From the NCBI GenBank assembly GCA_035708565.1, contig DASSSF010000097.1, positions 1 through 60,911 on the forward strand: DNA of 60,911 bases, in the 5' to 3' direction. The DNA comes from Candidatus Limnocylindria bacterium. GTDB taxonomy: Bacteria; Chloroflexota; Limnocylindria; P2-11E. Positions 5,749 to 40,405 of the stretch are shown piece after piece (within the stretch, counting starts at the first letter, position 1; each line of letters starts with the position of its first letter). The notes beneath the pieces are model-generated. The model made no database searches. It worked only from the letters and a program-made list of their open reading frames with translations, and was not told the DNA's origin. The translations under genes were made by a program, and so were the position numbers.

Positions 5749-5777
5749 GAGGATCGGGAGCGGCGGCCTCTGTTAGC

Positions 5778-6180: not shown

Positions 6181-6273
6181 CAGACCCCGATGAACATTGG
6201 GCTGCCCATGGGTGGCCGCGCGTGGCAGCTCACCTGATCCGCCGGAAGATGACCTGATCCTCTTGCGACCTGA

Positions 6274-6470: not shown

Positions 6471-6628
6471 CAATAGCGGGCCTCGGCAAGCCATGATGCG
6501 AACGACCTCAGGTACGCGAGCGCGAGCCGTGGTCAGCCTGACGCTCCGGCAAGCTCACTTCCAGGAGATCCACACGAGCGACGCGCGCGTCACCCCACCT
6601 GCACCGCATGGCGCGTGGCAGAGGCGCG

Positions 6629-8986: not shown

Positions 8987-9085
8987 GAAGGCGACACGAT
9001 AAGGGGTCCGTGAATAGGTGCGGCAGTTCTTCATGAAACCGCGCTCGGCCTTGACCCCCGGCGCTCCGCGCGCGACAACACGCCC

Positions 9086-9526: not shown

Positions 9527-9568
9527 CCACCAGGCCGCCCTCCGCGCGCACGTGCCCCGGATCCCGCG

Positions 9569-10732: not shown

Positions 10733-11143
10733 CTAGGCCGCCGCGGCCGCGAGCGGCGCGGCCGCGGCCGCGGCGCGCGCGCGGCGGAGGAGCGCGATCA
10801 CCGCGAGCGGGATGAGCAGCCGCGTGACCAGCGCCGTGGCGGGCGGCAGCGCGCGGGTGATCAGGAGCGCGAGCGCGCCGTCGATCGCGATCGTCGCGAT
10901 CAGCGCGCCCTCCACGACGAAGAGCACCCGGCGCGCCCACCGGCGCTCGTTGCCAACGTTCGCACGCGCGACGAGCAGCGCGGCCGCCGCGGCCGCGCTC
11001 GGCACCGCCGTCGCGGCGCCGCCGCCGAACGCGGAGCCCCAGATCAGCGCCTCGATCGTCGCCGCGACGAGGATCGCGCCCTGCAGCAGCACGAGCGCGC
11101 GGACCACGTCGAGCAGCTGCTCGAGCGTCCGTGGAGCGTTCAT
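10733..11143 (-). CDS. small integral membrane protein (hypothetical)
   Basis: 136 aa with 3-4 helices. Its stop abuts the start of the downstream gene. Confidence 0.5.
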   Translation of the reverse strand: MNAPRTLEQLLDVVRALVLLQGAILVAATIEALIWGSAFGGGAATAVPSAAAAAALLVARANVGNERRWARRVLFVVEGALIATIAIDGALALLITRALPPATALVTRLLIPLAVIALLRRARAAAAAAPLAAAAA

Positions 11144-11325
11144 CGCCGCAGATCATCCGCCGCTCTCTGGCCGGCGTGCGTGCGCTCGGTCACGATCTGG
11201 CCACCTGATCGTTCGAAGTCGGTAAGGAGAGCGGCGCGGCGGCCGACCGGCCGCGCTCGCGGGCGGTGGTCCGGTCCCGCGGGTGCGAGAGCACACTGGC
11301 GTGCCAAGTTGAACCCCTCGACACC

Positions 11326-11880
11326 ATGTCGGGCGTCCTATTGGCTGACGACGTGAGCAGCGGACCCGCGGGCGGCGCTCGACCGTCCCACGACATCGAG
11401 CTCGACTGGCCCGCGCTGTACGAGCGCCACGGCCCGGAGCTGTCGGCGTTCGCCTACCGGCTCACCGGCGACATGGAGGCGGCGAGGGACATCGTGCAGG
11501 ACACCTTCGCGCGGGCGATCGAGCGGGAGCGGTCGCTCCGCGACCGCGGCGCGGTCCGCGCGTGGCTCTACCGCATCGCGGCGCGGCTCGTGGTCTCGCG
11601 CCGGCGGCGGAGAGCGATCCTCGCGTTCGTCCCCTTCGCGGGGACCGAGCGCGCGCCGGAGCCCGACGCCGACACCGCGGCGCTCGTGCGCACGGCTCTC
11701 GCGCGCATCCCCTCGCACGAGGCGGTCGCGCTCGTGCTCGCGTACCACGAGGGCCTCTCGCGCGCGGAGATCGCGTCCGTGCTGGACGTCCCCGAGGAGA
11801 CGGTGAGGACGCGGATCCACCGCGGGCGCAAGAGCTTCGGCGCCGCGTACCGGCGCCTCGAGCGGGGCCTCGCCGGATGA
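11326..11880 (+). CDS. ECF-type RNA polymerase sigma-70 factor
   Basis: Region 2 'DIVQDTFARAIE...AWLYRIAARL' and region 4 'GLSRAEIASVLDVPEETVRTRIHRGRK'. ATG at 11326. Confidence 0.85.
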   Translation: MSGVLLADDVSSGPAGGARPSHDIELDWPALYERHGPELSAFAYRLTGDMEAARDIVQDTFARAIERERSLRDRGAVRAWLYRIAARLVVSRRRRRAILAFVPFAGTERAPEPDADTAALVRTALARIPSHEAVALVLAYHEGLSRAEIASVLDVPEETVRTRIHRGRKSFGAAYRRLERGLAG

Positions 11881-13139: not shown

Positions 13140-13171
13140 CGCCGCTCTCGCCGGGCGCGGCGTCCGCGCGC

Positions 13172-13187
13172 CTCCTCCATGGAGGAG
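13172..13187. terminator. perfect 16-bp palindrome between convergent genes (bidirectional terminator candidate)
   Basis: CTCCTCCATGGAGGAG. It is nested inside an outer inverted repeat TAGCGCCG...CGGCGCTA that contains both stop codons. Confidence 0.4.
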
Positions 13188-13196
13188 CCTACGGCG

Positions 13197-14954
13197 CTAG
13201 AACGGCGCGGTCCGGACGAGCGAGCTCTTGAGGCCGAGCGTGTGGCGCAGGAACTTGTCGCCGGGCAGGTCCGCCACGCCGAGGGAGCCGACGACCTTCA
13301 CCGAAACGGGCCGGCCTCCGGACGACAGCGCGAACTGCATGTTGACCAGCTGACCGATGTCGATGCCGTAGTCGACGATGATCTCGCGCCGCACGAGGTC
13401 CGACGAGAACGAGCGGTCCCAGACGTGCGGCATCGCGCCGAACTTGTCCCACGCGGCGAGCTCGGCCGGATCCTCGACCGGCTTCGTGTACGGCCAGTCC
13501 GCCTCGCAGGTCCACCTGCCCGCGACCCTCTCGACGTCGAGCGTGCAGCCGACGTTCTCCGACACGCCGCCGTGCGCCGACGAGAAGAGCGCGCGGATCG
13601 GCTTGCCCTGGTAGACGAGGATCTGGCCCTTCGTCGCCTGCACCGCCGCCGTCGAGCGCGGGCTCTCGTGCGACCGGCCGCCGTAGCACTGGTCGGCGAT
13701 GTCGTCGAGGACGTCCCAGTGCCGCTTCTGCGCGGTGGACTGCCGCCACGCCGCGTACGTCCGCGCCGCGATCGCCTGCGCGCGGAGGGCCTCGAACTCC
13801 CACCACGCGGGCATCTCGCTCGGGAGCACGCCCTGCATGTAGTCGTCGGAGGACACGTAGTTCACGACCGCGATGCCCGTCGCGCCGATCTGCACGCGGA
13901 TGTTGCCGCGGTACGCGAGGCCCTTCTCGCGGATCGCGATCGGGTCCCACCACTGGATCGGCGTGAAGGTCACGGCGGCGTCGCCGATGTAGACCCAGGA
14001 CCATCCGCCGTCGGCGCTCACGTGGAGGCGGCCGCCGATGTTGTGGACGTCGAGCGGGTGGTCGGGGCCGACCTCCGCGTAGACGACGCCCGGCTGCTGG
14101 TCGTTCACGAGCCGCATCCCGCCGGCGGACCACATCCGCGCGCGGTCGTGGATCGTGCGCTTCACGCACCCGGTCGACGGATACGAGAGCAGCACGCGGA
14201 ACGGCGACGACGGCGGCTGCTGGCCGAGCGAGGCGCCCGGGAAGTAGTGAAGGGCGATCTCCTCGCCGTTCTTCCTCGTTCCCGCCGCGCCGAGCGCCCA
14301 GCCCTGCGCGCCCCACTGCGACAGGCCGCTGCCGTGGCCCCAGCCCTTCCCGTAGAGGGTGACGCCCTCGGCGCGGACCGCGACGGTCGTCCCGCGCGCC
14401 CTCGCCTCGCCGCCGGCGAACCAGCCGCTCCGCTCGCGCACGAGATCCCAGGCGAGCGTGTAGAAGCCGGGCGCGTCCGGCACGCGCACGCCGGCCACGA
14501 CCGTCGCGCTCCGGCCGGGCAGCACGTCCGCGGCGATCGGCGTGCGCAGCCCGTCCCAGACCACGACCGTTCCGGTCTCGTCGTACCAGTGGTACGAGAG
14601 GCGCACCGGATCGTCGTCCGCCGCCGCCCAGGTGCCGAGGCCCGCGTTCGTGACGCGCACCTCGACCCACATCTCGCTGCCCGGGACGGCGAGCACCGGC
14701 GTCGCGACCGGGGAGATCTTGGCGTCGTCCTCGAAGGCCATGCGCTGGATGACCCCGCGCGCGTCGCCGCCGCGGGCGAGGACGAGCGCGCCGCCCCGCG
14801 CGACGAGCTCACCGAGCGGAGCGATCATGCGAGCGGCCCCCTGCTCGCCCGTGGCGTCGCCTATCGTCGCGACCAGCCCCGCGAACGTAACGACGGTCGC
14901 GACGGCGAGCGATGCGCGACGCGACCTCGTGAGCCCCAACATCCCGCTCCGCAT
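13197..14954 (-). CDS. SpoIID/LytB-domain protein with an N-terminal Ig-like module (secreted)
   Basis: SpoIID motifs 'AQAIAARTYAAW', 'DDIADQCYGG' and 'FSSAHGGVSENV'. Signal-anchor N-terminus. N-terminal module '...VEVRVTNAGLGTW...PGRSATVVAGVRVPDAPGFYTLAWDLV'. Confidence 0.8.
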   Translation of the reverse strand: MRSGMLGLTRSRRASLAVATVVTFAGLVATIGDATGEQGAARMIAPLGELVARGGALVLARGGDARGVIQRMAFEDDAKISPVATPVLAVPGSEMWVEVRVTNAGLGTWAAADDDPVRLSYHWYDETGTVVVWDGLRTPIAADVLPGRSATVVAGVRVPDAPGFYTLAWDLVRERSGWFAGGEARARGTTVAVRAEGVTLYGKGWGHGSGLSQWGAQGWALGAAGTRKNGEEIALHYFPGASLGQQPPSSPFRVLLSYPSTGCVKRTIHDRARMWSAGGMRLVNDQQPGVVYAEVGPDHPLDVHNIGGRLHVSADGGWSWVYIGDAAVTFTPIQWWDPIAIREKGLAYRGNIRVQIGATGIAVVNYVSSDDYMQGVLPSEMPAWWEFEALRAQAIAARTYAAWRQSTAQKRHWDVLDDIADQCYGGRSHESPRSTAAVQATKGQILVYQGKPIRALFSSAHGGVSENVGCTLDVERVAGRWTCEADWPYTKPVEDPAELAAWDKFGAMPHVWDRSFSSDLVRREIIVDYGIDIGQLVNMQFALSSGGRPVSVKVVGSLGVADLPGDKFLRHTLGLKSSLVRTAPF

Positions 14955-28898: not shown

Positions 28899-29681
28899 TC
28901 AGGCTCCGTTCGCGAGCTTGATGTCGTTCTTCCCGCCGCGCTTGACGGCGAGGAGCATCGCGTCGGCCTTGTGGATGAGCTCGTCGATGTCGCGGCCGGA
29001 CTCCGGACACACCGCGACGCCGCACGACAGCGACACGCGGCTCCCGCGCGCGGCCGTCAGGACCTCGACGCTCCAGCGGATGCGCTGCGCGATGCGCCGC
29101 GCCTCGAGCCGGTCGCAGCGGTCGAGGAGGATGACGAACTCGTCGCCGCCGTACCGCGCGGCGAGATCGGCCGCGCGGAGGTTGGCCTTGATGGCGCTCG
29201 CGACCGCCTGAAGGACGCGGTCCCCCGCAGGGTGGCCCTTCGTGTCGTTCACGTCCTTGAAGCCGTCGAGGTCGAGCACCGCCACCGCGCAGCTTCCCTT
29301 GTGGTCGACGGTGCGCGCCGTGCGCTGAGCCGCCGCCGCGCGGAAGGACCGGAGGTTGAGCAGGCCCGTGAGCGTGTCCTGCTCGGCCTGCTTCTCGACC
29401 TTCTCCACGCCGTCACGGTCGGCGCCGTAGAGGAGCACGAAGCCCGCGCCGAGGAGCGCGCTCGTGGCGAGCTGCATGACGGACGCGAACTGCGCGTACT
29501 CGGCGGTCATGAGATCGAGGGACGCGTGCGCGAGCAGGGTGAGCGACGCCAGGCCGAAGAACAGCCACGAGCGGGCCGCGATCGGGCTCCGACGGACGCG
29601 CAGCGAGGAGAGCGTCAGCGCCACGATCGAGAACGCGACGGCGACGTTCGCCCAGTCGGCCGCGCGGGAGACGTCGGGCAC
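28899..29681 (-). CDS. membrane-anchored diguanylate cyclase (GGDEF domain)
   Basis: 3 N-terminal TM helices. I-site 'RAAD' and active site 'GGDEF' ('LRAADLAARYGGDEFVILL'). Last gene of the NITWE operon. Confidence 0.85.
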   Translation of the reverse strand: MPDVSRAADWANVAVAFSIVALTLSSLRVRRSPIAARSWLFFGLASLTLLAHASLDLMTAEYAQFASVMQLATSALLGAGFVLLYGADRDGVEKVEKQAEQDTLTGLLNLRSFRAAAAQRTARTVDHKGSCAVAVLDLDGFKDVNDTKGHPAGDRVLQAVASAIKANLRAADLAARYGGDEFVILLDRCDRLEARRIAQRIRWSVEVLTAARGSRVSLSCGVAVCPESGRDIDELIHKADAMLLAVKRGGKNDIKLANGA

Positions 29682-29684
29682 GGG

Positions 29685-30509
29685 CTAGGCGAGGCCGGGC
29701 TGAGGGACCATCCCGGGCGCGAGGTCCGGCGCGACGAGGCGGATCTCGCTGCGCCCCTGGCTCTTGATCTCGCGCAGCAGCACGTCCGCCCGCTGGATGA
29801 GGCCGTGGAGCTCACCGTCGCAGTCGGGGTACATCGCGACGCCCGCCGAGATGCCGAGCTGGCCCGCCGGGGAGACGATCTCCTGCACCGCGTACGCGAG
29901 CCGCTGCACGATGCGCTGCGCCTCGAAGCGGTCGCAGCGGTCGAGGAAGAGGATGAACTCGTCCTCGCCGTAGCGGGCCGCGATGTCGTACGAGCGGACG
30001 TTCGCGCGGACCGCCTGCGCGATCTCCTCGAGGGGGAGGCTCCGGGCGTCCCGCGGCGCGTCGAAGCGCGTCCAGGAGTCGACCGAGAGGACGACGACGG
30101 CGCAGCGCCACCCGTTCGCGCGCGCGGCGGCGAACTTCGGGACGCCCACGACCGCGAAGAGCGAGAGGTCGCTGAGCTGCGTGAGCGCGGCCGGAGCGGG
30201 CCGCGGTTCGGCATCGGGCGCGATCTCGACGATCCGCGTGCCGATGCGGGCGGAGAGCTCGTCGAGGTCGAGCCCGGGAAGCGGCTCGAGGTCCGGGAGC
30301 CGGCGGCGCGCGATGACGCCCATCGCGAGGACCCCGGCGCACGCCCCGAGCCCCGCCGCCCCGCTGTCCTCGGTGAAGACCGCCGAGTTGAACACCGTGA
30401 CCGCGAAGATGCCGACGAGGACCGCCTCGACGACGGTGAGCAGGACCGCGATCCGGCCGGAGGCTCGGCGCGGCGACGGATCGCCGCGCCGGCGCTCCGG
30501 CTTCCCCAT
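29685..30509 (-). CDS. membrane-anchored degenerate GGDEF-domain protein (GEDEF)
   Basis: ATG at 30509. 2-3 TM helices. 'VRSYDIAARYGEDEFILFL' keeps the RxxD I-site, but the second Gly of GGDEF is replaced by Glu. Confidence 0.75.
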   Translation of the reverse strand: MGKPERRRGDPSPRRASGRIAVLLTVVEAVLVGIFAVTVFNSAVFTEDSGAAGLGACAGVLAMGVIARRRLPDLEPLPGLDLDELSARIGTRIVEIAPDAEPRPAPAALTQLSDLSLFAVVGVPKFAAARANGWRCAVVVLSVDSWTRFDAPRDARSLPLEEIAQAVRANVRSYDIAARYGEDEFILFLDRCDRFEAQRIVQRLAYAVQEIVSPAGQLGISAGVAMYPDCDGELHGLIQRADVLLREIKSQGRSEIRLVAPDLAPGMVPQPGLA

Positions 30510-30535: not shown

Positions 30536-30694
30536 TCACTCTTCCCAGGTGATGTTGGTGGCGCTCTCGCCACCAGCGCCTTCGACGCACTCCCACGTGT
30601 CGCCGCACTCCGCGGCGGCGGGAGCGGCCGAGGCCGCGAGGAAGGCGACGGACAGGGCCGCGGCCGCGAGGATGCGAGCGATGCGCTTCGCCAT
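30536..30694 (-). CDS. small secreted peptide precursor ending in NITWEE (peptide B)
   Basis: 52 aa: MAKRIARILAAAALSVAFLAASAAPAAA|ECGDTWECVEGAGGESATNITWEE. The ATG is preceded by GGTGAGGGGA. Sec-type signal with an AxA site. The C-terminal motif matches the subtilase repeat. Confidence 0.6.
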   Translation of the reverse strand: MAKRIARILAAAALSVAFLAASAAPAAAECGDTWECVEGAGGESATNITWEE

Positions 30695-30705
30695 TCCCCT
30701 CACCC

Positions 30706-30900
30706 CTATTCCCACGTGATGTTCTGGAAGCAGATGTTGGTGCAGTTGGGCCTGCCGGTCTCGGTGACGCCGGTGTAGCCGCTCCAGGCGGACGACGGCA
30801 TGGCCGCCGTCCACCAGAGCGCGACCGACATGAAGATCGCGAGGACCATGCGGCGCGAAGGCCAGACGATGGGGAGGCTCCCCTCCATGTGCCTGCCCAT
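30706..30900 (-). CDS. small secreted or membrane-anchored peptide precursor ending in NITWE (peptide A)
   Basis: 64 aa from the ATG at 30900, which abuts the HD-GYP stop; alternative ATGs are at 30888 and 30849. Hydrophobic 'MVLAIFMSVALWWTAAMPSSA' is followed by 'WSGYTGVTETGRPNCTNICFQNITWE'. Confidence 0.5.
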   Translation of the reverse strand: MGRHMEGSLPIVWPSRRMVLAIFMSVALWWTAAMPSSAWSGYTGVTETGRPNCTNICFQNITWE

Positions 30901-32301
30901 CTAGTTCGCCTTCACCGCGGCCACGGCCTGCTCGAACACGTGCGCGTGCGCGCCGGCCGGCTGGCCCGCGAGAGCCTGCTTGCGGTGCTCGGTCACGATC
31001 GCGACGAACTTCTCCACCACCACCGGGTTGAGCTGCGTGCCGGCGACGGCGCGCATCTCGCGGATCGCGTGGTCGAAGGAGAGCGCGCGGCGGTACGGAC
31101 GCGTCGAGGTCATCGCCTCGAACGTGTCGGCCACCGCGATGATCTGCGCGGCCAGCGGGATCTCGTCGCCCTTGAGGCCGTTCGGGTATCCCGACCCGTC
31201 GTAGCGCTCGTGGTGCGCGAGGATGATCGGCCGGACCTTCTCGAGCGTCGGGACGTGGGCGAGGAGGTTGGCACCGATGACCGGGTGCATCTTCATCTCC
31301 GCCCACTCCTCATCCGTGAGGCGCTCGGGCTTGCGGAGGATCTGCTCCGGGATGCCGATCTTGCCGATGTCGTGGAACAGCGCGCCGAGCTGCACGGCCG
31401 CGACCTCGTCCTCCGAGAGGCCGAGCTCACGCGCGACGGTGACCGCGTGGAACATCGTCGCCGACGAGTGGCCGTGCGTGTAGCGGTCCTTCGCCTCGAG
31501 CGCGCCCAGGAGCGCGCCGATGACCGAGAGGTGCGACTGCTCGAGGCGGTCGTTCGTCAGCTGAAGCATGCGGTTCGCCTCGACGAGGTCGGCGTTGCGG
31601 AGCCGCACCTCGCTCGACTTCGCCATGTAGAGCTTGAACGAGTACCAGGCCACCGCGAGCGGCAGCATGAACGTGACCGTCCCGAAGACGTTGAGCGACT
31701 GGTACGCGAAGGCGAGCGCCGCGCCGTTCACGGCGGTGGCGAGGTAGTTGATCGTCATCCACGAGTAGTTCTCACGCCAGACCGACATGAAGCGGTTCTG
31801 CGTCGTGAGCGTGATGACGAAGGCGGTCATCGCGCTGTTGGCGAGGAAGTAGATCGAGGCCGAGAGCGCCACGGCGACGACCGACTGCGGGATGTCCGCC
31901 GGCGGCACCTGACCGCCGAAGAGGCGGTACGCGTGCGCCGCGAGGAAGGCCGAGATCGTGAGGTTCCCGACGTTGAAGACCATCTTCTTGAGGGGCTTCC
32001 GCGTCGGCGTGAAGCAGTTCACGAGGGCGGAGGTCAGGTTCACCCAGAGGGCGACCGCCGGCCCGTAGAGGACGTACGACGCGATCGTCGCAGCGAACGC
32101 GACCGAGATCGCGCTCGACTTGAAGAGGAACACCGGAAGCCGCTGGGCGATCGCGGCGATGCCCATCAGCACGACGAGCATCACCGGGTCGACCTGCGTC
32201 GGCAGCGCCGTCACGCTGTACCCGAGCGCTGCGGCGCCGAGGATCCCGACCGTCGCGATGTAGGGCGTCACGAGGGTCGTCTTGTCCACGTTCTTGAACA
32301 T
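30901..32301 (-). CDS. polytopic membrane HD-GYP domain protein (putative c-di-GMP phosphodiesterase/receptor)
   Basis: About 230-aa N-terminal domain with 6-7 TM helices. HD-GYP motifs 'HGHS', 'FHDIGK' and 'HHERYDGSGYP'. Starts 3 nt after the subtilase stop. Confidence 0.85.
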   Translation of the reverse strand: MFKNVDKTTLVTPYIATVGILGAAALGYSVTALPTQVDPVMLVVLMGIAAIAQRLPVFLFKSSAISVAFAATIASYVLYGPAVALWVNLTSALVNCFTPTRKPLKKMVFNVGNLTISAFLAAHAYRLFGGQVPPADIPQSVVAVALSASIYFLANSAMTAFVITLTTQNRFMSVWRENYSWMTINYLATAVNGAALAFAYQSLNVFGTVTFMLPLAVAWYSFKLYMAKSSEVRLRNADLVEANRMLQLTNDRLEQSHLSVIGALLGALEAKDRYTHGHSSATMFHAVTVARELGLSEDEVAAVQLGALFHDIGKIGIPEQILRKPERLTDEEWAEMKMHPVIGANLLAHVPTLEKVRPIILAHHERYDGSGYPNGLKGDEIPLAAQIIAVADTFEAMTSTRPYRRALSFDHAIREMRAVAGTQLNPVVVEKFVAIVTEHRKQALAGQPAGAHAHVFEQAVAAVKAN

Positions 32302-32304
32302 CTC

Positions 32305-34032
32305 TTAATCCACCATCCCGGCGAAGCCGCTGCCGGATCCTGATAGGGCGTCGAGGGACTGCTGCGCAGACGACTGCCAGGTGATGGTCTCCCACGTGAT
32401 CGTCTCCCACGTGATGTTCTCCCACGTGAAGTTCTCCCACGTGATGTTGTCCCAGGTGATGTTGTCCCAGGTGATGTTCTCCCAGGTGATGTTCCCCCAG
32501 GTGACGTTCCGCGAGTCGACGCCGCCGTTGTGGAAGAGGTCCCGCCACGGGATCGGCTGGCCCTGGACGAAGCGCCGCATGTCCTTGGCGAACGAGTCGG
32601 TGACGCGGCCCTCGCTGTACTCCTTGTCGGGGTCCACCGAGGCCACGGCCTTGAGCGCGTTCACGAGGCCAGCGCCCTTGTCCTGGGGCCCGCCGTACGC
32701 GATGGGCGTCGTGTTCTTCTTGAGACGGCTCTTGATCTGCCCGGGCGTGAGCGAGCTGTTGCGCTCGACCATGAGCGCGACGATCCCCGACACCACCGGG
32801 GCGGCCATCGACGTGCCCGAGAGGCGCATGTACTCGGCGACGAGCGCGCCCGGGGCCGTCACGAGACGGTCCGGGTACATGGTCGGGATGGTGCTGCCGG
32901 GCGCGAGCGCGCTGACCATCTTGCGGCCGGGCGCCACGAGGTCCGGCTTGTTGAGGCGGTCGTACTTCGTGCGGCCGCGCGAGGAGAAGGTGGCCATGAG
33001 GTCGTCGGCGAGCGTCGCGGTGCCGTTGTCGTCGATCGCGCCGACCGTGATGACGAACGGGTCCGCGCCCGGCGACGTCACCGTCTCGACCGTCGGGCCG
33101 CTGTTGCCGGCGGAGACGACGACCGCGATGCCGGCGAAGTTGAGGACCTGCGCGGCGGTCGCGAGCGGGTCCGTCTTGTACGAGCCCGACTGCGTCGCGC
33201 CGAACGACATGTTCGTGACCTTGATGTTGTAGGTGCTCCTGTTGGCGAGCACCCACTGCAGGCCGCGAAGGATGATGCCGGTGTTGGAGACGCCGTTCGC
33301 GTCGATGACGCGGACGTCGACGACGTTCGCGCAGGGCGCGGTGCCGGTGAAGGCGCCGCCCGACGCGGTGCCGTTGCCGGCGACGAGGCCGGCGACGTGC
33401 GTTCCGTGGCCGCCCGGGTCACCCGCCACGTTGACGGGCGTCGTGTTGGTCACCGAAGCGCTCGTGAAGTCCACGGCGGCGACGATCCGTCCAGCGAGGT
33501 CCGGGTGGGGGTAGACCCCGCTGTCGACGACCGCGACGCCGACGCCGCGCCCGCACGTCCCGTACTGCTGCCAGGCCTGCGGCGCGTTCGTGGCGAGGAT
33601 CCCGGGCGTCGCGGCCTTCGAGGCGTCGAGCGCCGGGTCCCAGGTCGCGCGGAACGTGACGTTCTTGAAGACGTAGTCGACGTCGTTGTCCGAAAGGAGC
33701 TCGAGAAGCTGGCGGCCGTTGATCGTGGCGACGCCGCCGCCGATGATCCCGAGGCCGTAGTGCGTCTTGCCGCCCCTCGACGTGATCGCCTTGCTGACCT
33801 TCTCGAGGCGATCGCCGCTCCTGCTCTTGCCCCTGGAATCGGCGGGCGTCCCGCGGACGATGACGTCGAACTCGCCGCGCGGGTCCGCGAGGACCTCCTG
33901 GAGGAGGACCGGATCGATCTTGGCCGCGTTGACCGAGCGGGCCTCGCTCGGCGCCGACTGCGTCGCGATCAGGATCGCGAGACAGAGAGCCGCGCCGAGC
34001 CATCGCTGGACCGCTCTCGCAGTGCCCGTCAT
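32305..34032 (-). CDS. secreted subtilisin-like serine protease (S8) with a C-terminal NITWE pentapeptide repeat tail
   Basis: ATG at 34032 preceded by GGGAGG. Signal peptide and an I9-like propeptide region. Catalytic 'VAVVDSGV' (Asp), 'HGTHVAG' (His), 'SAGNSG' (Asn) and 'SGTSMAAP' (Ser). The C-terminus carries nine 5-aa repeats. Confidence 0.9.
   Translation of the reverse strand: MTGTARAVQRWLGAALCLAILIATQSAPSEARSVNAAKIDPVLLQEVLADPRGEFDVIVRGTPADSRGKSRSGDRLEKVSKAITSRGGKTHYGLGIIGGGVATINGRQLLELLSDNDVDYVFKNVTFRATWDPALDASKAATPGILATNAPQAWQQYGTCGRGVGVAVVDSGVYPHPDLAGRIVAAVDFTSASVTNTTPVNVAGDPGGHGTHVAGLVAGNGTASGGAFTGTAPCANVVDVRVIDANGVSNTGIILRGLQWVLANRSTYNIKVTNMSFGATQSGSYKTDPLATAAQVLNFAGIAVVVSAGNSGPTVETVTSPGADPFVITVGAIDDNGTATLADDLMATFSSRGRTKYDRLNKPDLVAPGRKMVSALAPGSTIPTMYPDRLVTAPGALVAEYMRLSGTSMAAPVVSGIVALMVERNSSLTPGQIKSRLKKNTTPIAYGGPQDKGAGLVNALKAVASVDPDKEYSEGRVTDSFAKDMRRFVQGQPIPWRDLFHNGGVDSRNVTWGNITWENITWDNITWDNITWENFTWENITWETITWETITWQSSAQQSLDALSGSGSGFAGMVD
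32374..32508 (-). repeat. 9 x 15-bp in-frame tandem repeat encoding (N/T)(I/V/F)TW(E/D/G/Q)
   Basis: Minus-strand units: aacgtcacctggggg, aacatcacctgggag, aacatcacctgggac (x2), aacatcacgtgggag, aacttcacgtgggag, aacatcacgtgggag, acgatcacgtgggag, accatcacctggcag. Confidence 0.95.
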
Positions 34033-34103
34033 GTCGCCTCCCACCCGAGAACTTCGGTGACCTGGTCCGGCCCAGGACGAGAGGAACGATGTGAGAACCG
34101 GTC

Positions 34104-34194: not shown

Positions 34195-35745
34195 TTACGC
34201 CGGGGCGTTCGCTGTACGTACGTCGCGGAGCGCGAGGAAGAGCTCGCGGGTCGCCGGCTCAGGCTCCGTGTCGAGGTCGCGGCGGAGGCGCCGCTCGAGC
34301 GACTGGTAGTGGCGGATCGCGAGGTCCGTGGCGCCGGCTCGGTGGTAGGCCCGGAGCAGGAGCCGGTGGCCGCCCTCGTCGTAGGGGTCCTTCTCGAGGA
34401 TCCGGTGGCACAGATCGATCGTGGCCTGCGGCTCGCCGGTCTCGAGCTCGGCCCAGGCCAGCTCCCGGGCCACGGACAGGAAGGCCGCCTCCACCCGCTC
34501 CCGCAGCTCGTCGATCCACGCTCCCGTGAGGTCGGCGAGGAGGGTCCCCCGATGGAGGGAGACGGCCTCGCGGAGGAGCTGCAGGTGCGCCTTCGCGTCC
34601 CCCGCCGCCTTGGCCTCGCGCGCCCGCCGCGCGCCCTGCTCGAAGGCGTCGGTGTCGAGCGTCGAGCCTTTCGGAAGCTCGAGCGCGTACCCGGCCGGCA
34701 CTTTCGTGACCTTGACGTGGTCGCCGAGGCCCGCGGACGCGAGCTCCCTCCGGAGCGAGTGCAGCGTGAAGTGGAACTTGCTCACGGCCGCGGCCGGCTC
34801 CGAGTCCGGCCAGAGCGCGACCATCAGCTCGTCGCGCGGGACGGGCCTCCCCTCCGCGGTCGCGAGGATCGCGAGCATCTCCTTCGCCTTCGCGGTGCGC
34901 CAGACGTTCTGGCCGACGGTCGCGCCGTCATGGCGCATCGCGAACGGACCGAGGAGGAGGATCTCGAGCGGCGCCGGGCCGCGCGCCGGCGCCTCGTGCG
35001 CCGGCATCGCGCTGTTCGCGGTGAGCAGGCCGAGCGTGGACGAGAGCCGGAGCGACGGATCGACCGCCGCGCCCTGCTCGCGAAGCCACTCGAAGACGGC
35101 CGGCCGCGCGACGAGGAGGTCGCGGTAGCCCTCCTGCGCGAGCGTGCGGACGGCGTCCCGTAGCGCGGGCACCTCCTGCTCGGGCGTCGGGGAGAGCCGC
35201 GCCGCGAGGATCGTGGCCTTCGTGCGGGCGTAGCGGGCGCCCGCCGCTTCGGCCTCCCGCTCGGCGCCGCGGTACGCGACGTACGCGTCGTCGAGGCTCC
35301 CCTCGAGCTCGAGCACGGCTCCCCGCGCGAGGAGCAGGTAGGCGGTCGGGACGGCCGAGGCGTCCACGCGCGCCGCCACCTCGTCGGCGGAGCGGAGCGC
35401 TGCCCGGGCGCCGGGCAGGTCGCCGCGGCCCGCGCGGAGCTCGGCCGCGGCGCAGTGCAACCGGAAAAGGGTGCTCGGGTCGCGCGAGCCACGCTCGGCG
35501 TCGAGCGCGGCGCGGTACGCGTCCTCGGCCGCCTCCGCGTGCGCGGCGAGCGCGTTCACGACGACGACCGTGGAGAGCGAGGCGGCGCGCGCGATGCCGA
35601 ACGACTCCGTGCGCTCGACTCTCGGCGTGAGGTCGACGCCCGCGACCGCTTCCGGCGACAGCCTGCGGAGCCACTGGCGGGCGCGCTCACGGAGGTCCGC
35701 GAGACCCGCGGACCGGCTCGAACGATCGTCGGGAGACGAGCTCAC
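34195..35745 (-). CDS. SARP-type regulator: N-terminal helical-repeat (TPR-like) region plus C-terminal winged-helix and BTAD domains
   Basis: GTG at 35745 is preceded by GAGAGGAAGG. 'LEILLLGPFAMRHDG...PVPRDELMVALWPD...' is an OmpR-type wHTH. 'TDAFEQ...LLREAVSLHRGTLLADL...LLLRAYHRAGATDLAIRHYQSLERRLRRDLDTEP' is a BTAD domain. The upstream 62 aa of the ORF overlap the preceding gene and are rejected. Confidence 0.8.
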   Translation of the reverse strand: MSSSPDDRSSRSAGLADLRERARQWLRRLSPEAVAGVDLTPRVERTESFGIARAASLSTVVVVNALAAHAEAAEDAYRAALDAERGSRDPSTLFRLHCAAAELRAGRGDLPGARAALRSADEVAARVDASAVPTAYLLLARGAVLELEGSLDDAYVAYRGAEREAEAAGARYARTKATILAARLSPTPEQEVPALRDAVRTLAQEGYRDLLVARPAVFEWLREQGAAVDPSLRLSSTLGLLTANSAMPAHEAPARGPAPLEILLLGPFAMRHDGATVGQNVWRTAKAKEMLAILATAEGRPVPRDELMVALWPDSEPAAAVSKFHFTLHSLRRELASAGLGDHVKVTKVPAGYALELPKGSTLDTDAFEQGARRAREAKAAGDAKAHLQLLREAVSLHRGTLLADLTGAWIDELRERVEAAFLSVARELAWAELETGEPQATIDLCHRILEKDPYDEGGHRLLLRAYHRAGATDLAIRHYQSLERRLRRDLDTEPEPATRELFLALRDVRTANAPA

Positions 35746-35818
35746 GTTGTCGGGCCTTCCTCTCTGTGCGGAAGGTGAGGCTAACCCAGGCTGAACGGGC
35801 GCGGTCGTGTCGGAACGG

Positions 35819-37579
35819 TCACCAGTTGGCCGTGAACCCCGCCACGCGTGGCGGGAGCGCGGCGCCGGGCGGGCGGATGACGTAGACGGTGCCGAAGGAT
35901 CCCTGGAGCCAGGCCCGCTCGAACGCCGCACGGGGATAGACGCGCCTGACGGCGGCGTTCGACAGCGCGGCCGGGTCGTGCGAGATCACGTCCCCGCTCT
36001 CGGTGAACCCGCTGATCACGAGCAGGTGGCCCTCTGTCCCGAGGCCGAACAGGAAGCCCGGCAGCGCGCCCGGAGCGAAGGACACCGACGCCACGAGCGG
36101 GATGCCCGCGACGACGAACGCCTCCGCCTCGGCGAGCGAGCGCAGCCGGGTCACGGAGCCACGCGCCCCATAGCGCGCCGCGTACGCGGTGTTGAACGCC
36201 CAGTTCCCCGTTCCGCGGTAGCGGTGGTCGTAGGTGTATCGCGCGGCGTGGTCGACCTGCGGATCCGCGTACGGGATCCCGGCGAGCTCCGACGCCGAGG
36301 GCCCGAGGCCGTGGAACGCGAGCACCATCGCGGTCGACGTCGGGCTGCACCATGCCTCACCACCGCCGTCGTACTCCGGGTACTCGCCGGCGTGGATCTC
36401 CTGCGAGAACGGCGGCACCGCGAGCTCGCTGCCGCGACCGGATCCGGGTGCGCTCGGGATGCGCGGGGCGTACTCGCGGGTGTCCGCGACGACCGCGCCG
36501 AGCGCCGTCACACGCGGCGTCGCGGCGTAGCCGTCGGTCCGGTACAGCGTCGCGCGGAGACGGTACGAGCGGTAGCGCTCGGCGCCGGCGACGAACGTGT
36601 CCACGCTCACGCTCCCGCCGTCGTCGCGCTGGCCGGCGACCGACGTCCGCGAGATGTCCGCGTCGCCCGAGGCCCACACGCCCATCACGTACCAGCGCGT
36701 GCTCCGGATCCCGTCCGGAGAGGCCTGCATCGCGACCTCGATCCACGTGCCGGGCGGCGTGTCCGCCTCCCACGACGCGATGAGCTCGCTCCAGCCGAAC
36801 GGCGTCTCCTGCCACGCGGACGTCCACGAGCCGGCGCGGTACGCGCGCGTGCCGCGCCCGAACGCGTCGGTGAAGGTTCCGCTCTGCGTCGGCGACGCGA
36901 GCTCGACCGCCGCGGCGGCGAAGCGCGTCCCGTCGTGCGTGCCTGCCGCGAGGTCGGCCTGCGCGTAGCCGATCGCCGGCGAGCCGCCCGACGGCGGCAC
37001 GCTGCCGTCGGCGCGCAGCACGGTGACGTACCAGAACACGCCGAAGTCCTCGAGCCACGCCGCGGCCTCGATGAGCGGACGGATCGCGAGGCGGTACGTG
37101 CCCGGGACGAGCGGGGCCTGAACGGTGAACCGGAACCACGCGACCTGGCCCGGACCGACATACGGCACGGGCTGGACGGCGACGCGGTCGTAGCGCGGCC
37201 AGCCCGTCGCGGGCGAGCCGCGCGTGCCGTCCCCGCCGAGGACGCTCGCGCGGTCCTGTCCGGGCTCCGGCGTCCACGTGCCGAGGTAGGCGACCTCCCC
37301 CATCCTGCCCGCGACCCAGCCGAGCGAGCCCGAGTTGTAGAAGGCGACGGTCGCCGTCGAGCGCTCGCCCGCGCAGAGCGACGGGTAGCCGCTCTGGCCG
37401 TACCAGTGCGCGTGGAACCCGGCGATGCCCGACGGCACGTCGGCCGGCGGCGGGATCCCCGGTCCGACGCTCGACACGCACGACGACCCGCTCGCCTTCG
37501 CGGGCGGGACCGCGGCCGTCGCCGGGACCGGCGCCGCGGGCGCGAGCGCGACGACGACCGCGAGCGCGATGCGGATCAC
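35819..37579 (-). CDS. secreted protein: Ig-like N-terminal module plus C-terminal C39-like (YvpB-type) cysteine peptidase domain
   Basis: Signal peptide. 'GGGEAWCSPTSTAMVLAFHG' is the Cys motif and 'EGHLLVISGFTESGDVISHDP' the His motif of the Peptidase_C39-like family. The N-terminal ~190 aa are paralogous to the protein at 39104-40405. Confidence 0.75.
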   Translation of the reverse strand: MIRIALAVVVALAPAAPVPATAAVPPAKASGSSCVSSVGPGIPPPADVPSGIAGFHAHWYGQSGYPSLCAGERSTATVAFYNSGSLGWVAGRMGEVAYLGTWTPEPGQDRASVLGGDGTRGSPATGWPRYDRVAVQPVPYVGPGQVAWFRFTVQAPLVPGTYRLAIRPLIEAAAWLEDFGVFWYVTVLRADGSVPPSGGSPAIGYAQADLAAGTHDGTRFAAAAVELASPTQSGTFTDAFGRGTRAYRAGSWTSAWQETPFGWSELIASWEADTPPGTWIEVAMQASPDGIRSTRWYVMGVWASGDADISRTSVAGQRDDGGSVSVDTFVAGAERYRSYRLRATLYRTDGYAATPRVTALGAVVADTREYAPRIPSAPGSGRGSELAVPPFSQEIHAGEYPEYDGGGEAWCSPTSTAMVLAFHGLGPSASELAGIPYADPQVDHAARYTYDHRYRGTGNWAFNTAYAARYGARGSVTRLRSLAEAEAFVVAGIPLVASVSFAPGALPGFLFGLGTEGHLLVISGFTESGDVISHDPAALSNAAVRRVYPRAAFERAWLQGSFGTVYVIRPPGAALPPRVAGFTANW

Positions 37580-39103: not shown

Positions 39104-40405
39104 CTATGGGGCCGAGCGGACGAACGCCGACCGGTGCGCCTCGAAGCGCGCGTAGAAGGCGTCCACGCCCTCCGCGAAGGCGCCCGCGAACGCGGCGCGC
39201 CATGGCTCCCCGCGCCCGACGCGCGCGCACCAGTCCCGCAGCGAGAGCGCGCCGCGCTCGCGCGCGAGCAGCTCCACCGCGAGCTGGCCGACGGCGAACG
39301 GGTTCGCGGACGCGGGCCACGACGACTCGAGGGACGAGAGCGGCACGTACTCGCCGCCCGTGAGCTGGCGGCGCAGGAACGTGTCGACGGCGCGTCTTTG
39401 GATCAGGCCGTCTGTGACGAGCGCGCCGTAGGCGATCGTCTCGGGCATGCCCTCCGACAGCCAGCGCGGGCCGAGCATGCAGCCGCTTCCGCCGACCTCG
39501 TGCTGCCAGAGGTGCGCGTACTCGTGGGCGGACAGCTCCATGCGCTCGACCGACGCGCTCCACGTGTCGGGCGCCGCGGCGGCGGGGGCTCTCCACGCGG
39601 CGTGCGACGTCCAGATCTCGAACGACGTCCCTGTCGCGAGGCAGCAGTACCGCTCGCTCCCGCTGCCGACGGCGATCGTCGCGGCCGCGGCGCGTCGGCG
39701 GTCGCCGCCGTACGTCTCCGCGAGGTGGCGGCCCGCGCGCGCGACGCCCTCGTGCAGCTCGTGCACATGCCAGGCGTCGAGCCCTGGACCCGCGACGACC
39801 GTGAACCCGAGCGGGTCGCGAGGCGCGGGACGGGGCGGCGCCGTGCCGTCGGGCCGGAGCACGGTCACCTCCCAGTAGACGCCGACGTCCTCCAGCCACG
39901 ACGCATCCTCGATCACCGGCCGGATGCCGATGCGGTAGAGGCCCGGCGTCGCGGGAGCCTGCACGGTGAACTGGAACCACGCGACCTGGCCCGGACCGAC
40001 GTACGCCGCGGGCTGCGCCGCGACGCGGTCGTAGCGCGGCCAGCCCGTCGCGGGCGAGCCACGCGTGCCGTCGCCGCCGAGCACGCTCGGCTGATCCTGG
40101 CCCGGCTCCTCGGCCCACGTCCCGAGATACGCGGCCTCGCCCATGCGGCCCTGCACCCAGCCGATCGAGCCGGCGTTGTAGTACGCGACGACCGCGGTCC
40201 GGCGCTCGCCCGGGCAGAGGCGCATGTAGCCGCTCTGCCCGTACCACTGCGCGTGCAGACCCGGGATCCCCGCGCGCACCGACGCCGGCGGCGGGATGCC
40301 GGGCCCCGTGCTCGAGGCGCACGCGGCCTGCGCGGGCACCGACGGGAGCGGCGCGCCAAGGCCGAGGAGGAACAGCAAGATCGCGAGCCCGGCGTTGGCC
40401 ATCAC
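39104..40405 (-). CDS. secreted protein: Ig-like N-terminal module plus C-terminal HExxH putative zinc metalloprotease domain
   Basis: Signal peptide, N-terminal module paralogous to the protein at 35819-37579, and 'ELSAHEYAHLWQHE' (HExxH) in the C-terminal half. Confidence 0.7.
   Translation of the reverse strand: MMANAGLAILLFLLGLGAPLPSVPAQAACASSTGPGIPPPASVRAGIPGLHAQWYGQSGYMRLCPGERRTAVVAYYNAGSIGWVQGRMGEAAYLGTWAEEPGQDQPSVLGGDGTRGSPATGWPRYDRVAAQPAAYVGPGQVAWFQFTVQAPATPGLYRIGIRPVIEDASWLEDVGVYWEVTVLRPDGTAPPRPAPRDPLGFTVVAGPGLDAWHVHELHEGVARAGRHLAETYGGDRRRAAAATIAVGSGSERYCCLATGTSFEIWTSHAAWRAPAAAAPDTWSASVERMELSAHEYAHLWQHEVGGSGCMLGPRWLSEGMPETIAYGALVTDGLIQRRAVDTFLRRQLTGGEYVPLSSLESSWPASANPFAVGQLAVELLARERGALSLRDWCARVGRGEPWRAAFAGAFAEGVDAFYARFEAHRSAFVRSAP

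Follow-up and report, generated by a model that had tools for sequence, protein, structure and literature searches.

A Trp-centered repeat unit shared by the tail of a secreted subtilase and adjoining mini-proteins in a conserved operon encoding c-di-GMP enzymes

INTRODUCTION

Among the closest described systems are the Phr/CSF peptides of Bacillus (RRNPP), whose Sec-exported propeptides are matured by subtilases and in some cases hold more than one pheromone unit (PMC11343458). The locus described here lies in a 60,911-nucleotide stretch of DNA from a Candidatus Limnocylindria bacterium (the window) and appears to share with them small (~40- to 60-aa) Sec-exported precursors whose conserved active part is C-terminal, as well as maturation outside the cell by an S8 subtilase (in Bacillus, subtilisin, Epr, and Vpr). 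Its 52-aa mini-protein also resembles some Phr propeptides in containing more than one unit. However, no Rap or other TPR-type receptor gene adjoins the peptide gene and no Opp gene is present in the operon; the partners are instead c-di-GMP enzymes of the membrane or a histidine kinase. The protease, a dedicated one encoded in the operon, carries the unit nine times in its own tail, and the conserved core of the 64-aa family comprises 12 residues, a Cys loop together with the unit.

Kex2 is an S8 protease that cuts tandem repeats, as in the precursors of yeast alpha-factor and fungal dikaritins. Plant burpitides have short cores, often with Trp, located in the enzyme polypeptide ("fused") or in small precursors ("split") (PMC11253845). 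A short Trp motif both fused to a putative processing enzyme and present in stand-alone small precursors is likewise found here, but the enzyme is a protease rather than a copper-dependent BURP cyclase, the system is bacterial, and, unlike burpitide and Kex2 precursors, it has no modification enzyme, and its units are contiguous, with no spacers. In the LapD-LapG system, in which c-di-GMP controls proteolysis in the periplasm, a protease outside the cytoplasm is likewise linked to a membrane protein of c-di-GMP signaling encoded nearby, but the protease, LapG, is of the cysteine type, the degenerate GGDEF-EAL receptor LapD has a large periplasmic domain, and both repeat tail and mini-peptides are lacking. 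The tandem 5- or 6-residue period with a hydrophobic residue at fixed positions recalls pentapeptide-repeat (Rfr-fold) and hexapeptide-repeat (left-handed beta-helix) proteins, from which the tail differs in its central Trp, in the lack of a Pfam match for the window's tail, and in that AlphaFold, in low-confidence runs, predicts no beta-helix. The SHP and ComS/XIP systems of streptococci use very small ORFs encoding hydrophobic peptides, sometimes with Trp, whose C-terminal residues are the signal; export by PptAB and import by Opp precede binding to cytoplasmic Rgg/ComR receptors. The 8- to 19-codon ORFs of Acidobacteriota reported below resemble these but are shorter still, and Rgg/ComR, PptAB, and Opp genes were not seen here.

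RESULTS

Operon organization

The operon order BTAD, S8, MASE9/HD-GYP, mini-protein, GGDEF, GGDEF (Table 1) is conserved in Gaiellaceae-like soil bacteria and was the same whether loci were found from the protease or from the mini-protein. Successive genes are separated by 3, 0, 11, 26, and 3 nt when the first GGDEF gene is taken from its ATG (30509), with 3 nt between the S8 stop and MASE9/HD-GYP, 0 nt between HD-GYP and mini-protein 1, and 26 nt between mini-protein 2 and the first GGDEF gene. These gaps, together with the coordinates and tail sequence given in a first-pass annotation, were all present in the sequence. The SARP/BTAD regulator, whose true start is probably downstream of 35931, lies directly upstream of the S8 gene and is conserved there at L080 to L083, L114, L115, and L001. 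Both the HD and the GYP motifs of the MASE9 protein are intact. The degenerate GGDEF protein (GEDEF, RSYD I-site, two hydrophobic segments) is likely a c-di-GMP receptor or sensor, while the diguanylate cyclase has an intact GGDEF motif (I-site RAAD) and is also the last operon gene at L080, L116, and L117.

TABLE 1 Features of the operon region in the window
Feature	Position	Strand	Basis
Secreted protein, Peptidase_C39_2-like domain	35819..37579	-	Pfam PF13529, E 2e-23
SARP/BTAD-type regulator (Trans_reg_C + BTAD)	34195..35931	-	Pfam PF03704, E 1e-27
Secreted S8 subtilase	32305..34044	-	Pfam PF00082, 167.7 bits
Tail array, nine W-centered pentapeptide units x-[IVF]-T-W-[EDGQ]	32374..32508	-	Sequence, Tandem Repeats Finder
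22-aa C-terminal extension after the nine units	32308-32373	-	Sequence
Integral-membrane MASE9 + HD-GYP c-di-GMP phosphodiesterase	30901..32301	-	Pfam PF20972, PF13487, PF01966
Mini-protein 1, 64 aa (60 aa from second ATG)	30706..30900	-	25 homologue clusters
Mini-protein 2, 52 aa	30536..30694	-	Homologue P0146, 73% identical
Membrane-anchored degenerate GGDEF protein	29685..30509	-	Pfam PF00990, partial match
Membrane-anchored diguanylate cyclase	28899..29681	-	Pfam PF00990, E 1e-39

The subtilase and its tail

The S8 subtilase consists of a signal peptide, an I9-like propeptide, the catalytic domain, a conserved linker, and the W-repeat tail, and its start is probably the ATG at 34032, as the database copy (P0001) is 575 aa. 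The catalytic residues D174/H213/N314/S412 are invariant in alignments of 18 and 59 sequences, which argues that protease activity matters. When the propeptide junction was aligned with subtilisin BPN', cleavage appeared possible between ATW and DP or between DAS and KA, with no clear support for Trp at P1.

The tail (residues 513 to 557) reads NVTWG-NITWE-NITWD-NITWD-NITWE-NFTWE-NITWE-TITWE-TITWQ and is encoded by 8.9 copies of a 15-bp unit with 90% matches. Homologues of the subtilase number more than 4,800, and all of the 120 best have 9 or 10 tail units, with variants tied to position (NVRWD as unit 3 and GFTWE as unit 6). The conservation of these variants across ~100 homologues argues for a defined structural or binding role of the tail and against equivalent cleavable units. 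Neither the tail nor the mini-peptides had a match in Pfam, NCBIfam, PDB, or the literature, in agreement with the earlier impression that no described family has this arrangement; sub-threshold Pfam matches to Hexapep and Pentapeptide were obtained only for tail flavors other than that of the window. In two AlphaFold runs, with the tail in context and alone, pLDDT over the tail was 31 to 57 (low confidence).

The mini-proteins

The motif that the first-pass annotation had reported as common to the subtilase tail and two mini-protein C termini proved to be real. Translation of the window in all six frames gives six copies of ITWE, four in the tail and two at the mini-protein ends, and of the 745 stop-to-stop segments with 30 aa or more, two end in ITWE or ITWEx, versus 0.0005 expected; chance is excluded as the source of these ends. 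Both small ORFs look coding from their third-position GC (0.97 and 0.88, versus ~0.96 in neighboring genes), from homologues elsewhere, and, for the 52-aa ORF, from a GAGGGG Shine-Dalgarno-like site on its 5' side.

In mini-protein 1, a Sec-type signal peptide and a variable linker precede the conserved end C-T-N-I-C-F-Q-N-I-T-W-E-stop. All 25 homologue clusters terminate in C-x3-C-x3-ITWE-stop, so that the conserved part is a 12-residue Cys-loop peptide, more than a pentapeptide, and in the loci examined the gene is invariably flanked by HD-GYP and GGDEF. The ITWE residues are invariant across the family while their codons show synonymous changes, and the ratio of synonymous to nonsynonymous changes is 68:114 in the last 13 codons versus 49:300 in the 13 before; the core is more tightly constrained than the linker. 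In mini-protein 2 the signal peptide ends in AAPAAA, and the mature part, ECGDTWECVEGAGGESATNITWEE, carries a second unit within a Cys-Cys loop in addition to the terminal one (ATNITWEE-stop). Its homologue P0146 (ECGITWEC...AANITWEE) is encoded in the same two-gene arrangement at locus L118. With a signal peptide in front, a linker that varies, and a core conserved at the C terminus, the mini-proteins are built like the precursor of a peptide signal.

Distribution of tails and free units

S8 proteases with C-terminal W-centered repeats of 5 or 6 residues beside HD-GYP or GGDEF genes were found in Actinomycetota, Chloroflexota, and Acidobacteriota. Among 63 W-tailed S8 loci with enough downstream sequence, an HD-GYP gene follows the S8 gene in 35, and in 41 the 3 kb downstream contain an HD-GYP or GGDEF gene on the strand of the S8 gene. 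In many lineages the repeats are highly homogeneous, vary in copy number from 5 to 23, and have turn-formers (G, N, D, S, E) after Trp in both the 5- and the 6-residue periods. The link to c-di-GMP enzymes and the breadth across phyla, like the 8- to 19-codon free unit, lie beyond the first-pass annotation.

Inspection of homologue neighborhoods, which had been proposed as a check, revealed that W-rich tails co-occur with adjacent small ORFs ending in the same unit. Free copies were identified at ~18 loci, some as Sec-type mini-proteins, in flavors matching the local tail (ITWE, VTWE, ISWE, VGWN, IIWG, and IVWT). Tail and free unit pair as NITWE/NITWE in the window, GVTWE/GVTWE(E) at L086 and L110, NISWE/NISWE at L007, and GITWE/GITWE at L008 and L111; at L048, the tail unit SVGWN is accompanied by the free units NVGWNS and TVSWNG. 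On average a free unit matches its own tail at 2.52 of 4 non-W positions, a value reached in 0 of 20,000 permutations of loci that are not phylogenetically independent. In every free unit, Trp is followed by exactly one or two residues (WE, WEE, WNS, WNG, WGD, WGE, WTD, WLP, or WD), in keeping with a cap that can be removed or with a requirement for a free carboxylate close by. At L007 and L008 the free-unit stop overlaps the start of a histidine-kinase gene.

In Acidobacteriota the free units are ORFs of 8 to 19 codons that either closely follow the S8 gene or immediately precede HD-GYP; they include MARIIVWGD, MKLIIWGE, MSRLIIWGD, MRIIVWTD, and MRTRVTIIWLP. A Shine-Dalgarno-like site lies 6 to 10 nt upstream in all six inspected closely, and three copies of MRIIVWTD differ only synonymously. 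These peptides have no signal peptide; thus, an export route or action on the cytoplasmic side must be assumed. Limnocylindria-type loci keep the tail and HD-GYP with no free-unit ORF within 10 kb, which argues for a function of the tail that does not depend on free peptides.

DISCUSSION

The mini-genes and operon genes are real, conserved, co-located, and co-varying, and the occurrence of the W unit in tail and presumably exported peptides beside c-di-GMP enzymes points to an undescribed peptide-based signaling module. We tentatively favor the view that a conserved module, of which this region is the core, joins an extracytoplasmic protease to c-di-GMP signaling, and within it we infer export, a cleavage site, a signaling role, and a receptor. 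The W unit (N-I-T-W-E in the window) would be a lineage-specific recognition element, fused as nine tandem copies in the secreted S8 tail and free at the very C terminus of peptides, either one or two of ~25 aa exported by Sec or, in Acidobacteriota, one of 8 to 19 residues. The subtilase would recognize the unit and cut there, most plausibly after Trp, trimming the one- or two-residue cap from the peptides and processing its own tail. The Trp-ended hydrophobic peptides could then act at the membrane as local (autocrine or quorum-type) signals, sensed by the adjoining membrane proteins (MASE9-HD-GYP and TM-GGDEF in the window, a histidine kinase with three or four TM segments in other lineages), with a shift in c-di-GMP levels; the tail may compete as a substrate built into the enzyme or supply additional units. 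The Phr-like logic suggested earlier is viable to this extent and fits the context, as does the idea of the tail as a precursor, pseudo-substrate, or docking element, but membership in Phr/RRNPP fails because the operon has no TPR-type receptor or Opp gene and the 64-aa family core is a 12-residue Cys-loop peptide.

A less probable but still credible reading dispenses with cleavage and takes the W unit as a putative ligand of the membrane sensor (MASE9 or TM-GGDEF/histidine kinase). The multivalent tail would tether the protease to the sensor, and free peptides would compete and release or recruit the protease; an extracytoplasmic protease would be controlled in the manner of LapD/LapG, or the control would run the other way. 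Broad specificity is usual for subtilases, whereas the co-variation involves several positions, out to -3, and would fit a specific ligand-receptor pair better than cleavage. No feature is more conserved than the adjacency of S8 and HD-GYP or GGDEF, the tail is retained where free peptides are absent, and its variants keep their positions; moreover, the sensors adjoining the mini-genes have only short outside loops, and MASE9 has been proposed to bind its ligand inside the membrane (10.1101/2021.11.05.467447). Why the carrier of the tail is always an active protease is left unexplained. It is unlikely that short strands of the tail (hydrophobic-x-W, each followed by a tight turn) instead build a beta-solenoid or beta-meander on which a free unit docks, like on like, as a further rung or edge strand, capping, extending, or cross-linking the tail, possibly for assembly or anchoring. 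In-register stacking predicts the identity-type co-variation found, and the periods with turn-formers, the sub-threshold matches of other tail flavors, and the position-conserved variants are in keeping with it, but no confident tail fold was predicted in context or alone, the window's tail matches no Pfam repeat family, tiny cytoplasmic ORF products would not meet an exported tail, and the catalytic domain and c-di-GMP genes are left without a role.

More doubtful is a multi-copy precursor, in which the tail would be a polyprotein of signal units, cut by the protease into pieces of five or six residues, and each mini-protein would be a stand-alone precursor of the same product. Enzyme tail and separate small genes do share one unit, the repeats are homogeneous and vary in number in many lineages, and fused/split precursors (PMC11253845) and tandem pheromone propeptides (PMC11343458) are precedents. 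Against it, unit number and position variants have been fixed in the window's clade over long evolutionary distances, unlike interchangeable cores, no spacer or recognition sequences separate the units, and the 64-aa family core exceeds a pentapeptide. We consider it improbable that the ORFs with a W-x-stop terminus, along with the S8 gene through its W-rich 3' end, serve as cis-acting leaders regulating translation or transcription of the downstream sensor gene through ribosome stalling or Trp sensing (TnaC- or attenuation-like). Free-unit ORFs do lie directly 5' of sensor genes, are often translationally coupled, and in Acidobacteriota are only 8 to 19 codons with no signal peptide. Yet a leader would have no use for the signal peptides and Cys loops that the mini-proteins conserve, amino acid conservation extends over the whole unit rather than the Trp codon alone, a leader tracking the protease tail is unexplained, and Rfam reported only a tRNA gene (6109-6180), with no RNA element near the operon. 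Least credible, and contradicted by the comparative data, are N-glycosylation, chance, and a decaying, functionless copy of the tail repeat DNA. N-I-T fits the N-x-T sequon in the window, as the first-pass annotation had pointed out, but the Asn is not conserved, Gly replacing it in most homologues (G-V-T-W-E), while other lineages lack the sequon (SIAWD, RASWS, SVGWN); the observed ORF ends far exceed the chance expectation given above, and the mini-genes lie 1.4 kb from the tail, have their own signal peptides, and are under purifying selection.

The Peptidase_C39_2-like gene, whose place in the module is uncertain, also lies 5' of BTAD-S8 in the close relatives L081, L082, L114, and L115.

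A conserved gene row with two mini-protein genes

The GC content of the window is approximately 73%, and the minus-strand genes from the S8 subtilase to the intact GGDEF cyclase (see the table) are separated by intergenic gaps of 3, 0, 11, 26, and 3 nt, in agreement with the first-pass annotation. The MASE9-HD-GYP gene matched PF20972 (MASE9; 41.5; threshold, 24.3) and PF13487 (HD_5; 135.3; threshold, 27.2), and the HD and GYP motifs are intact in its translation (LFHDIGK and HHERYDGSGYP). The intact cyclase carries RYGGDEF, in line with the pattern GG[DE]EF, and an I-site (RAAD); the neighboring membrane-anchored protein departs from this pattern, as its GEDEF motif is degenerate. Each of these two GGDEF proteins has two hydrophobic segments. 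An Rfam scan of the window identified a tRNA gene only. Two secreted proteins encoded in the window share a clearly paralogous N-terminal domain of approximately 200 amino acids (..GPGIPPPA..HAQWYGQSGY..GWPRYDRVA..). One also has a Peptidase_C39_2-like domain, and its gene is kept upstream of BTAD-S8 in relatives; the other had no match in Pfam.

The claim that the two small open reading frames (ORFs) share the motif of the subtilase tail was upheld, as the 64-aa ORF ends ...CFQNITWE and the 52-aa ORF ends ...ATNITWEE. Six ITWE strings are present in the six-frame translation of the window, four in the tail and two at the mini-protein ends. The window contains 745 stop-to-stop segments of 30 aa or longer, of which two end in ITWE or ITWEx against 0.0005 expected, and a chance origin of the shared motif was rejected on this basis. 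The GC3 values of the 64-aa and 52-aa ORFs (0.97 and 0.88, respectively) fit coding frames.

Close relatives of the subtilase (70 to 73% identity), from Gaiellaceae-like soil metagenomes, have the same operon, with one ORF of 55 to 65 aa between the HD-GYP and GGDEF genes that ends ...TCTEGCLQSITWE or ...ICTDGCLHSITWE. When the 64-aa sequence was used as a single query, it matched only itself owing to a word-index limit; an alignment-based profile search identified a family of 25 clusters, all ending C-T-x-x-C-x-[QH]-[SN]-I-T-W-E-stop and all built from a conserved signal peptide, a variable linker, and a conserved C terminus. Loci reached via the mini-protein have the unchanged order C39_2-like, BTAD, S8, HD-GYP, mini-protein, GGDEF, GGDEF. 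The ratio of synonymous to nonsynonymous differences was 68:114 in the last 13 codons and 49:300 in the 13 codons before these; ITWE is invariant in the protein, yet its codons vary synonymously. A 73% identical homolog of the 52-aa protein reads ...AAA followed by ECGITWECANGFGGESAANITWEE, and on its contig ...NCTNICLQNITWE-stop is followed by the same 11-nt gap, the homolog, 26 nt, and a GGDEF gene. Besides its terminal NITWEE, the 52-aa peptide has a second unit, G-[ID]-T-W-E, within a Cys-Cys loop (ECGDTWEC in the window and ECGITWEC in its homolog P0146). The Cys pair before the terminal unit is C-x3-C in the 64-aa family and C-x7-C in loci L111 and L048. By inspection, the mini-proteins fit small Sec-exported precursors, with an Arg/Lys n-region, a hydrophobic core, an A-x-A-type site, and a conserved C terminus, and these sequence features argue firmly for the mini-genes encoding predicted exported peptides. 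In locus L001, runs of N mask the region directly after the HD-GYP gene, the expected site of a mini-protein gene. The evidence firmly identifies the gene row as a conserved, functional module.

Features of the window and of homologous loci
Locus	Feature	Position	Strand	Tail unit	Peptide end
Window	Second secreted protein	39104-40405	minus
Window	Secreted protein, C39_2-like	35819-37579	minus
Window	SARP/BTAD regulator	34195-35931	minus
Window	S8 subtilase	32305-34044	minus
Window	Post-repeat C terminus of S8	32308-32373
Window	MASE9 + HD-GYP phosphodiesterase	30901-32301	minus
Window	64-aa ORF	30706-30900	minus
Window	52-aa ORF	30536-30694	minus
Window	Mature part of 52-aa protein	30539-30610
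Window	Degenerate membrane-anchored GGDEF protein	29685-30509	minus
Window	Intact GGDEF cyclase	28899-29681	minus
L001	Masked region	~6175-7200
L007	ABC-2-type permease; kinase	8897-9688; 13156-14355
L008	ABC-2-type permease; kinase	9027-9815; 13309-14463
L111	ABC-2-type permease; kinase	5215-6003; 9251-10603
L086	ABC-2-type permease upstream of S8	48-1022
L086, L110	Two mini-protein genes, as in window			GVTWE	..VGVTWEE / ..GEGVTWE and ..LLGITWE / ..LFGVSWE
L111	Mini-protein			GITWE, AITWE, SITWD	..KCASTKLPACQLGITWE
L007	Mini-protein			mostly NISWE	..PANISWE
L008	Mini-protein			DITWE, GITWE	..LFGITWE
L048	Two mini-protein genes directly after S8			SVGWN	..CLGIKGLLCIVPNVGWNS and ..FLATVSWNG
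L103	Second S8 paralog	4513-6096		xVTWE
L105	Second S8 paralog	9882-11492		xVTWE
L027	Out-of-frame tail	11150-11500		TIVWAD x13
L028	Out-of-frame tail	11430-11700		SVVWTN x10
L018	Tiny ORF	11470-11499
L023	Tiny ORF	9762-9788
L027	Tiny ORF	11521-11550
L028	Tiny ORF	11719-11745
L034	Tiny ORF	stop ~3667-3669	minus
L065	Tiny ORF	2903-2929
L052	Tiny ORF	from 4644
L063	Tiny ORF	from 11490
L078	Tiny ORF	from 11383
L014-L017, L019-L021, L024, L029, L036, L040, L046, L049, L058-L075	Other W-centered S8 tails	S8 C termini
L018, L022, L023, L038, L047, L052, L061, L077	Other W-centered S8 tails

The subtilase and its repeat tail

The subtilase matched PF00082 at 167.7 bits (cut-off, 21.8), and its catalytic residues D174, H213, and S412, together with oxyanion N314, are invariant in both subtilase alignments (A1, 18 sequences; A2, 59 sequences). 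A T7SS mycosin identity was rejected, as the 142 bits obtained with NCBIfam TIGR03921 lie under the equivalog cut-off of 278.75. The tail consists of nine units, NVTWG NITWE NITWD NITWD NITWE NFTWE NITWE TITWE TITWQ, followed by 22 residues; in the DNA, a 15-bp unit is repeated 8.9 times in tandem. All 120 best subtilase homologs (Gaiellaceae and Candidatus Limnocylindria metagenome-assembled genomes [MAGs]) retain 9 or 10 units, and particular positions in the array keep their own variants (e.g., NVRWD at unit 3 and GFTWE at unit 6). The tail is an ancient feature and a conserved one. The C terminus beyond the repeats is likewise conserved in the window and homologs as [GS]-[WF]-x-x-[VL]-D-stop (..GFAGMVD, ..SWDPVD, and ..WELVD).

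More distant S8 relatives have five-residue W-centered tails (SIAWD, SVNWG, SVSWN, SVGWN, GSAWT, GSTWT, RASWS, and GSQWA), and those of Acidobacteriota have a six-residue period (TIVWSD, SIIWGN, GLVWSN, NIVWST, QIIWGD, and SAVWGT), with copy numbers from 5 to 23 across S8 relatives in other phyla. The window tail is outside every Pfam and NCBIfam family, and no curated family was found for the W-centered tails in other phyla. The proposal that N-x-T marks an N-glycosylation site is refuted because Asn is not conserved: most homologs have G-V-T-W-E, and SIAWD, RASWS, and SVGWN are found in other lineages.

In PDB sequence searches, the closest solved structure to the subtilase was Tk-SP (3afg); searches with the tail by itself yielded weak, compositional matches only, e.g., to HIV gp41. 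The short beta-helical fold suggested for the repeat is possible but did not appear in two AlphaFold2 runs (the full subtilase with a 59-sequence alignment and the tail alone with 24 sequences), in which tail pLDDT was 31 to 57, i.e., of low confidence. Pentapeptide-repeat profiles (PF00805 and related) did not match the window tail at E values up to 1, and the other tail flavors gave sub-threshold Hexapep/Pentapeptide scores only; a pentapeptide-repeat protein identity was thus rejected for want of a profile match or predicted beta-helix. In a BLASTP comparison with the BPN' precursor, the propeptide junction was ambiguous and a P1 preference was not apparent, and no clear pattern of co-variation between the junction and tail flavor was seen. 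In L027 and L028, the W-repeat tails are out of frame with the S8 catalytic domain, which is probably an assembly frameshift, though found in two loci; as the tails exist in another reading frame, these loci were rejected as examples of a tail-less S8 plus tiny ORF.

Free units match the tail of their own locus

Mini-proteins of the Sec type with one terminal unit were tabulated for six loci (L007, L008, L048, L086, L110, and L111). An exact copy of a unit from the tail of the same locus was found at 8 of 14 peptide ends. The mean own-tail match was 2.52 of the 4 non-W positions; when loci were permuted 20,000 times, this value was never reached, although the loci are phylogenetically non-independent. 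In Acidobacteriota, the free unit is instead a tiny ORF 10 to 80 nt past the S8 stop codon or immediately upstream of the HD-GYP gene, with 8 to 19 codons, a single tail-like unit, and no signal peptide. Examples include MARIIVWGD, MKLIIWGE (tail SIIWGN), MSRLIIWGD, and ..RRKVVWD, as well as MRTRVTIIWLP in two loci and MRIIVWTD in three, two of which have the tails SVVWTN and SIVWTD; the three copies of MRIIVWTD differ synonymously only. A Shine-Dalgarno-like site lies 6 to 10 nt upstream in all six closely inspected cases (L018, L023, L027, L028, L034, and L065). When both strands of 1.1 Mb were scanned for the motif, a Shine-Dalgarno site, and ORF length, ten tiny free-unit ORFs adjoining S8 or HD-GYP were identified, the other matches being two inside an S8 tail, four opposite S8 tails, and, elsewhere, two ORFs of 5 aa. 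In every free unit, one or two residues trail the Trp. The unit can be firmly described as a shared, lineage-specific recognition element.

Limnocylindria-type loci lack a free unit within 10 kb, though the tail and HD-GYP are kept. Some of them have a second S8 paralog with an xVTWE tail after HD-GYP, in the position occupied by the mini-proteins in the window.

Association with c-di-GMP enzymes and kinases

Downstream sequence of at least 2.5 kb was available for 63 W-tailed S8 genes. On the same strand and no more than 3 kb away, 35 of these are followed by an HD-GYP gene and 6 by a GGDEF gene; several of the remainder have an HD-GYP or GGDEF gene upstream instead. The window HD-GYP bears MASE9, a membrane domain for which ligand binding within the membrane has been proposed (10.1101/2021.11.05.467447). 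L007, L008, and L111 have the row ABC-2 permease, S8, HD-GYP, mini-protein, and histidine kinase with three or four transmembrane (TM) segments, and in L007 and L008, the stop of the mini-protein gene overlaps the start of the kinase gene. This permease and kinase may be paired for exporting and sensing the peptide. The L048 row runs from a LuxR-type response regulator through S8, two mini-proteins, and HD-GYP to a GGDEF + HD-GYP protein.

Relation to known systems and possible mechanism

The arrangement resembles the Phr-like logic put forward in the first-pass annotation. Phr/CSF propeptides, for which subtilisin, Epr, and Vpr are the cleaving proteases (PMC11343458), are likewise small Sec-exported precursors with a conserved C-terminal peptide. 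Membership of the Phr/RRNPP family fails for want of both Opp and the receptor that defines the family (Rap/RRNPP): Pfam identified no TPR-type receptor (Rap, NprR, PlcR, or PrgX) among the operon neighbors or in relatives, the sole TPR-like domain among the operon neighbors being the BTAD of the SARP regulator, and the operon has no opp gene. A lanthipeptide/RiPP cluster with a LanP-type S8 was rejected, as no LanB/C/M, radical SAM, YcaO, etc., occurs in the operon or conserved neighbors, and by the features tested the arrangement is not a LapD/LapG system. Neither the literature nor curated families yielded W-repeat subtilase tails, the mini-proteins, or S8/HD-GYP pairing; no description of a peptide with c-di-GMP was found in the literature, and the paper on Streptomyces HdgA does not mention a protease partner. 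The arrangement was rated categorically new, though its parts are known.

We tentatively favor a mechanism in which the subtilase would recognize the unit and cut there, stripping the one- or two-residue cap and processing its own tail (candidate substrates are SGYTGVTETGRPNCTNICFQNITWE, ECGDTWECVEGAGGESATNITWEE, and a tail peptide of three units); the resulting Trp-ended peptides would signal to the adjoining membrane-embedded c-di-GMP enzymes or kinase. Three main rivals exist. One membrane receptor could bind tail and peptides alike, without cleavage, or the peptide could dock homotypically onto a folded tail. The units could also belong to a multi-copy precursor in fused and split forms, for which burpitides are the comparison system (PMC11253845); the likeness to the S8/mini-protein system is in logic only, and membership of the burpitide pathway was rejected, as Pfam identified no BURP domain. 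Cis-acting leader peptides are less likely.

Beyond the favored cleavage mechanism, the loci could represent an undescribed multi-phylum form of peptide signaling, combining a fused array of a lineage-specific Trp-centered ligand unit in a secreted subtilase with split copies from adjacent genes, in Sec-exported mini-proteins or micropeptides of 8 to 19 residues, in which fused and split units both feed membrane-embedded c-di-GMP enzymes (MASE9-HD-GYP and TM-GGDEF) or histidine kinases, and tail, peptide, and sensor diversify together like pherotypes; taken as a whole, this reading is plausible but doubtful. If it is true, the unit would be the first ligand class for MASE9, would tie extracellular proteolysis directly to c-di-GMP, and would provide a bacterial case of an enzyme bearing copies of its partner peptides' end motif. 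We know of no signal for MASE9 or for most membrane-embedded HD-GYP/GGDEF sensors. The arrangement holds much interest in that it supplies MASE9-type sensors with a candidate ligand class and lends itself to direct experiments; the genetically linked, co-varying unit is a concrete, synthesizable candidate ligand with a testable protease-dependent maturation step. To our knowledge, quorum-type peptides have not been reported in Gaiellales, Chloroflexota/Limnocylindria, or Acidobacteriota, and the multi-phylum reading, if true, would extend peptide signaling to these poorly studied soil phyla. Conserved, functional ORFs of 8 to 19 codons can be found by matching them to the repeat motifs of neighboring proteins. 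The contigs of loci L005, L008, and L052, which carry the bacterial S8/HD-GYP module, are labeled Bathyarchaeia archaeon, Saccharimonadales, and Bifidobacteriaceae and are probably mis-binned MAG contigs.
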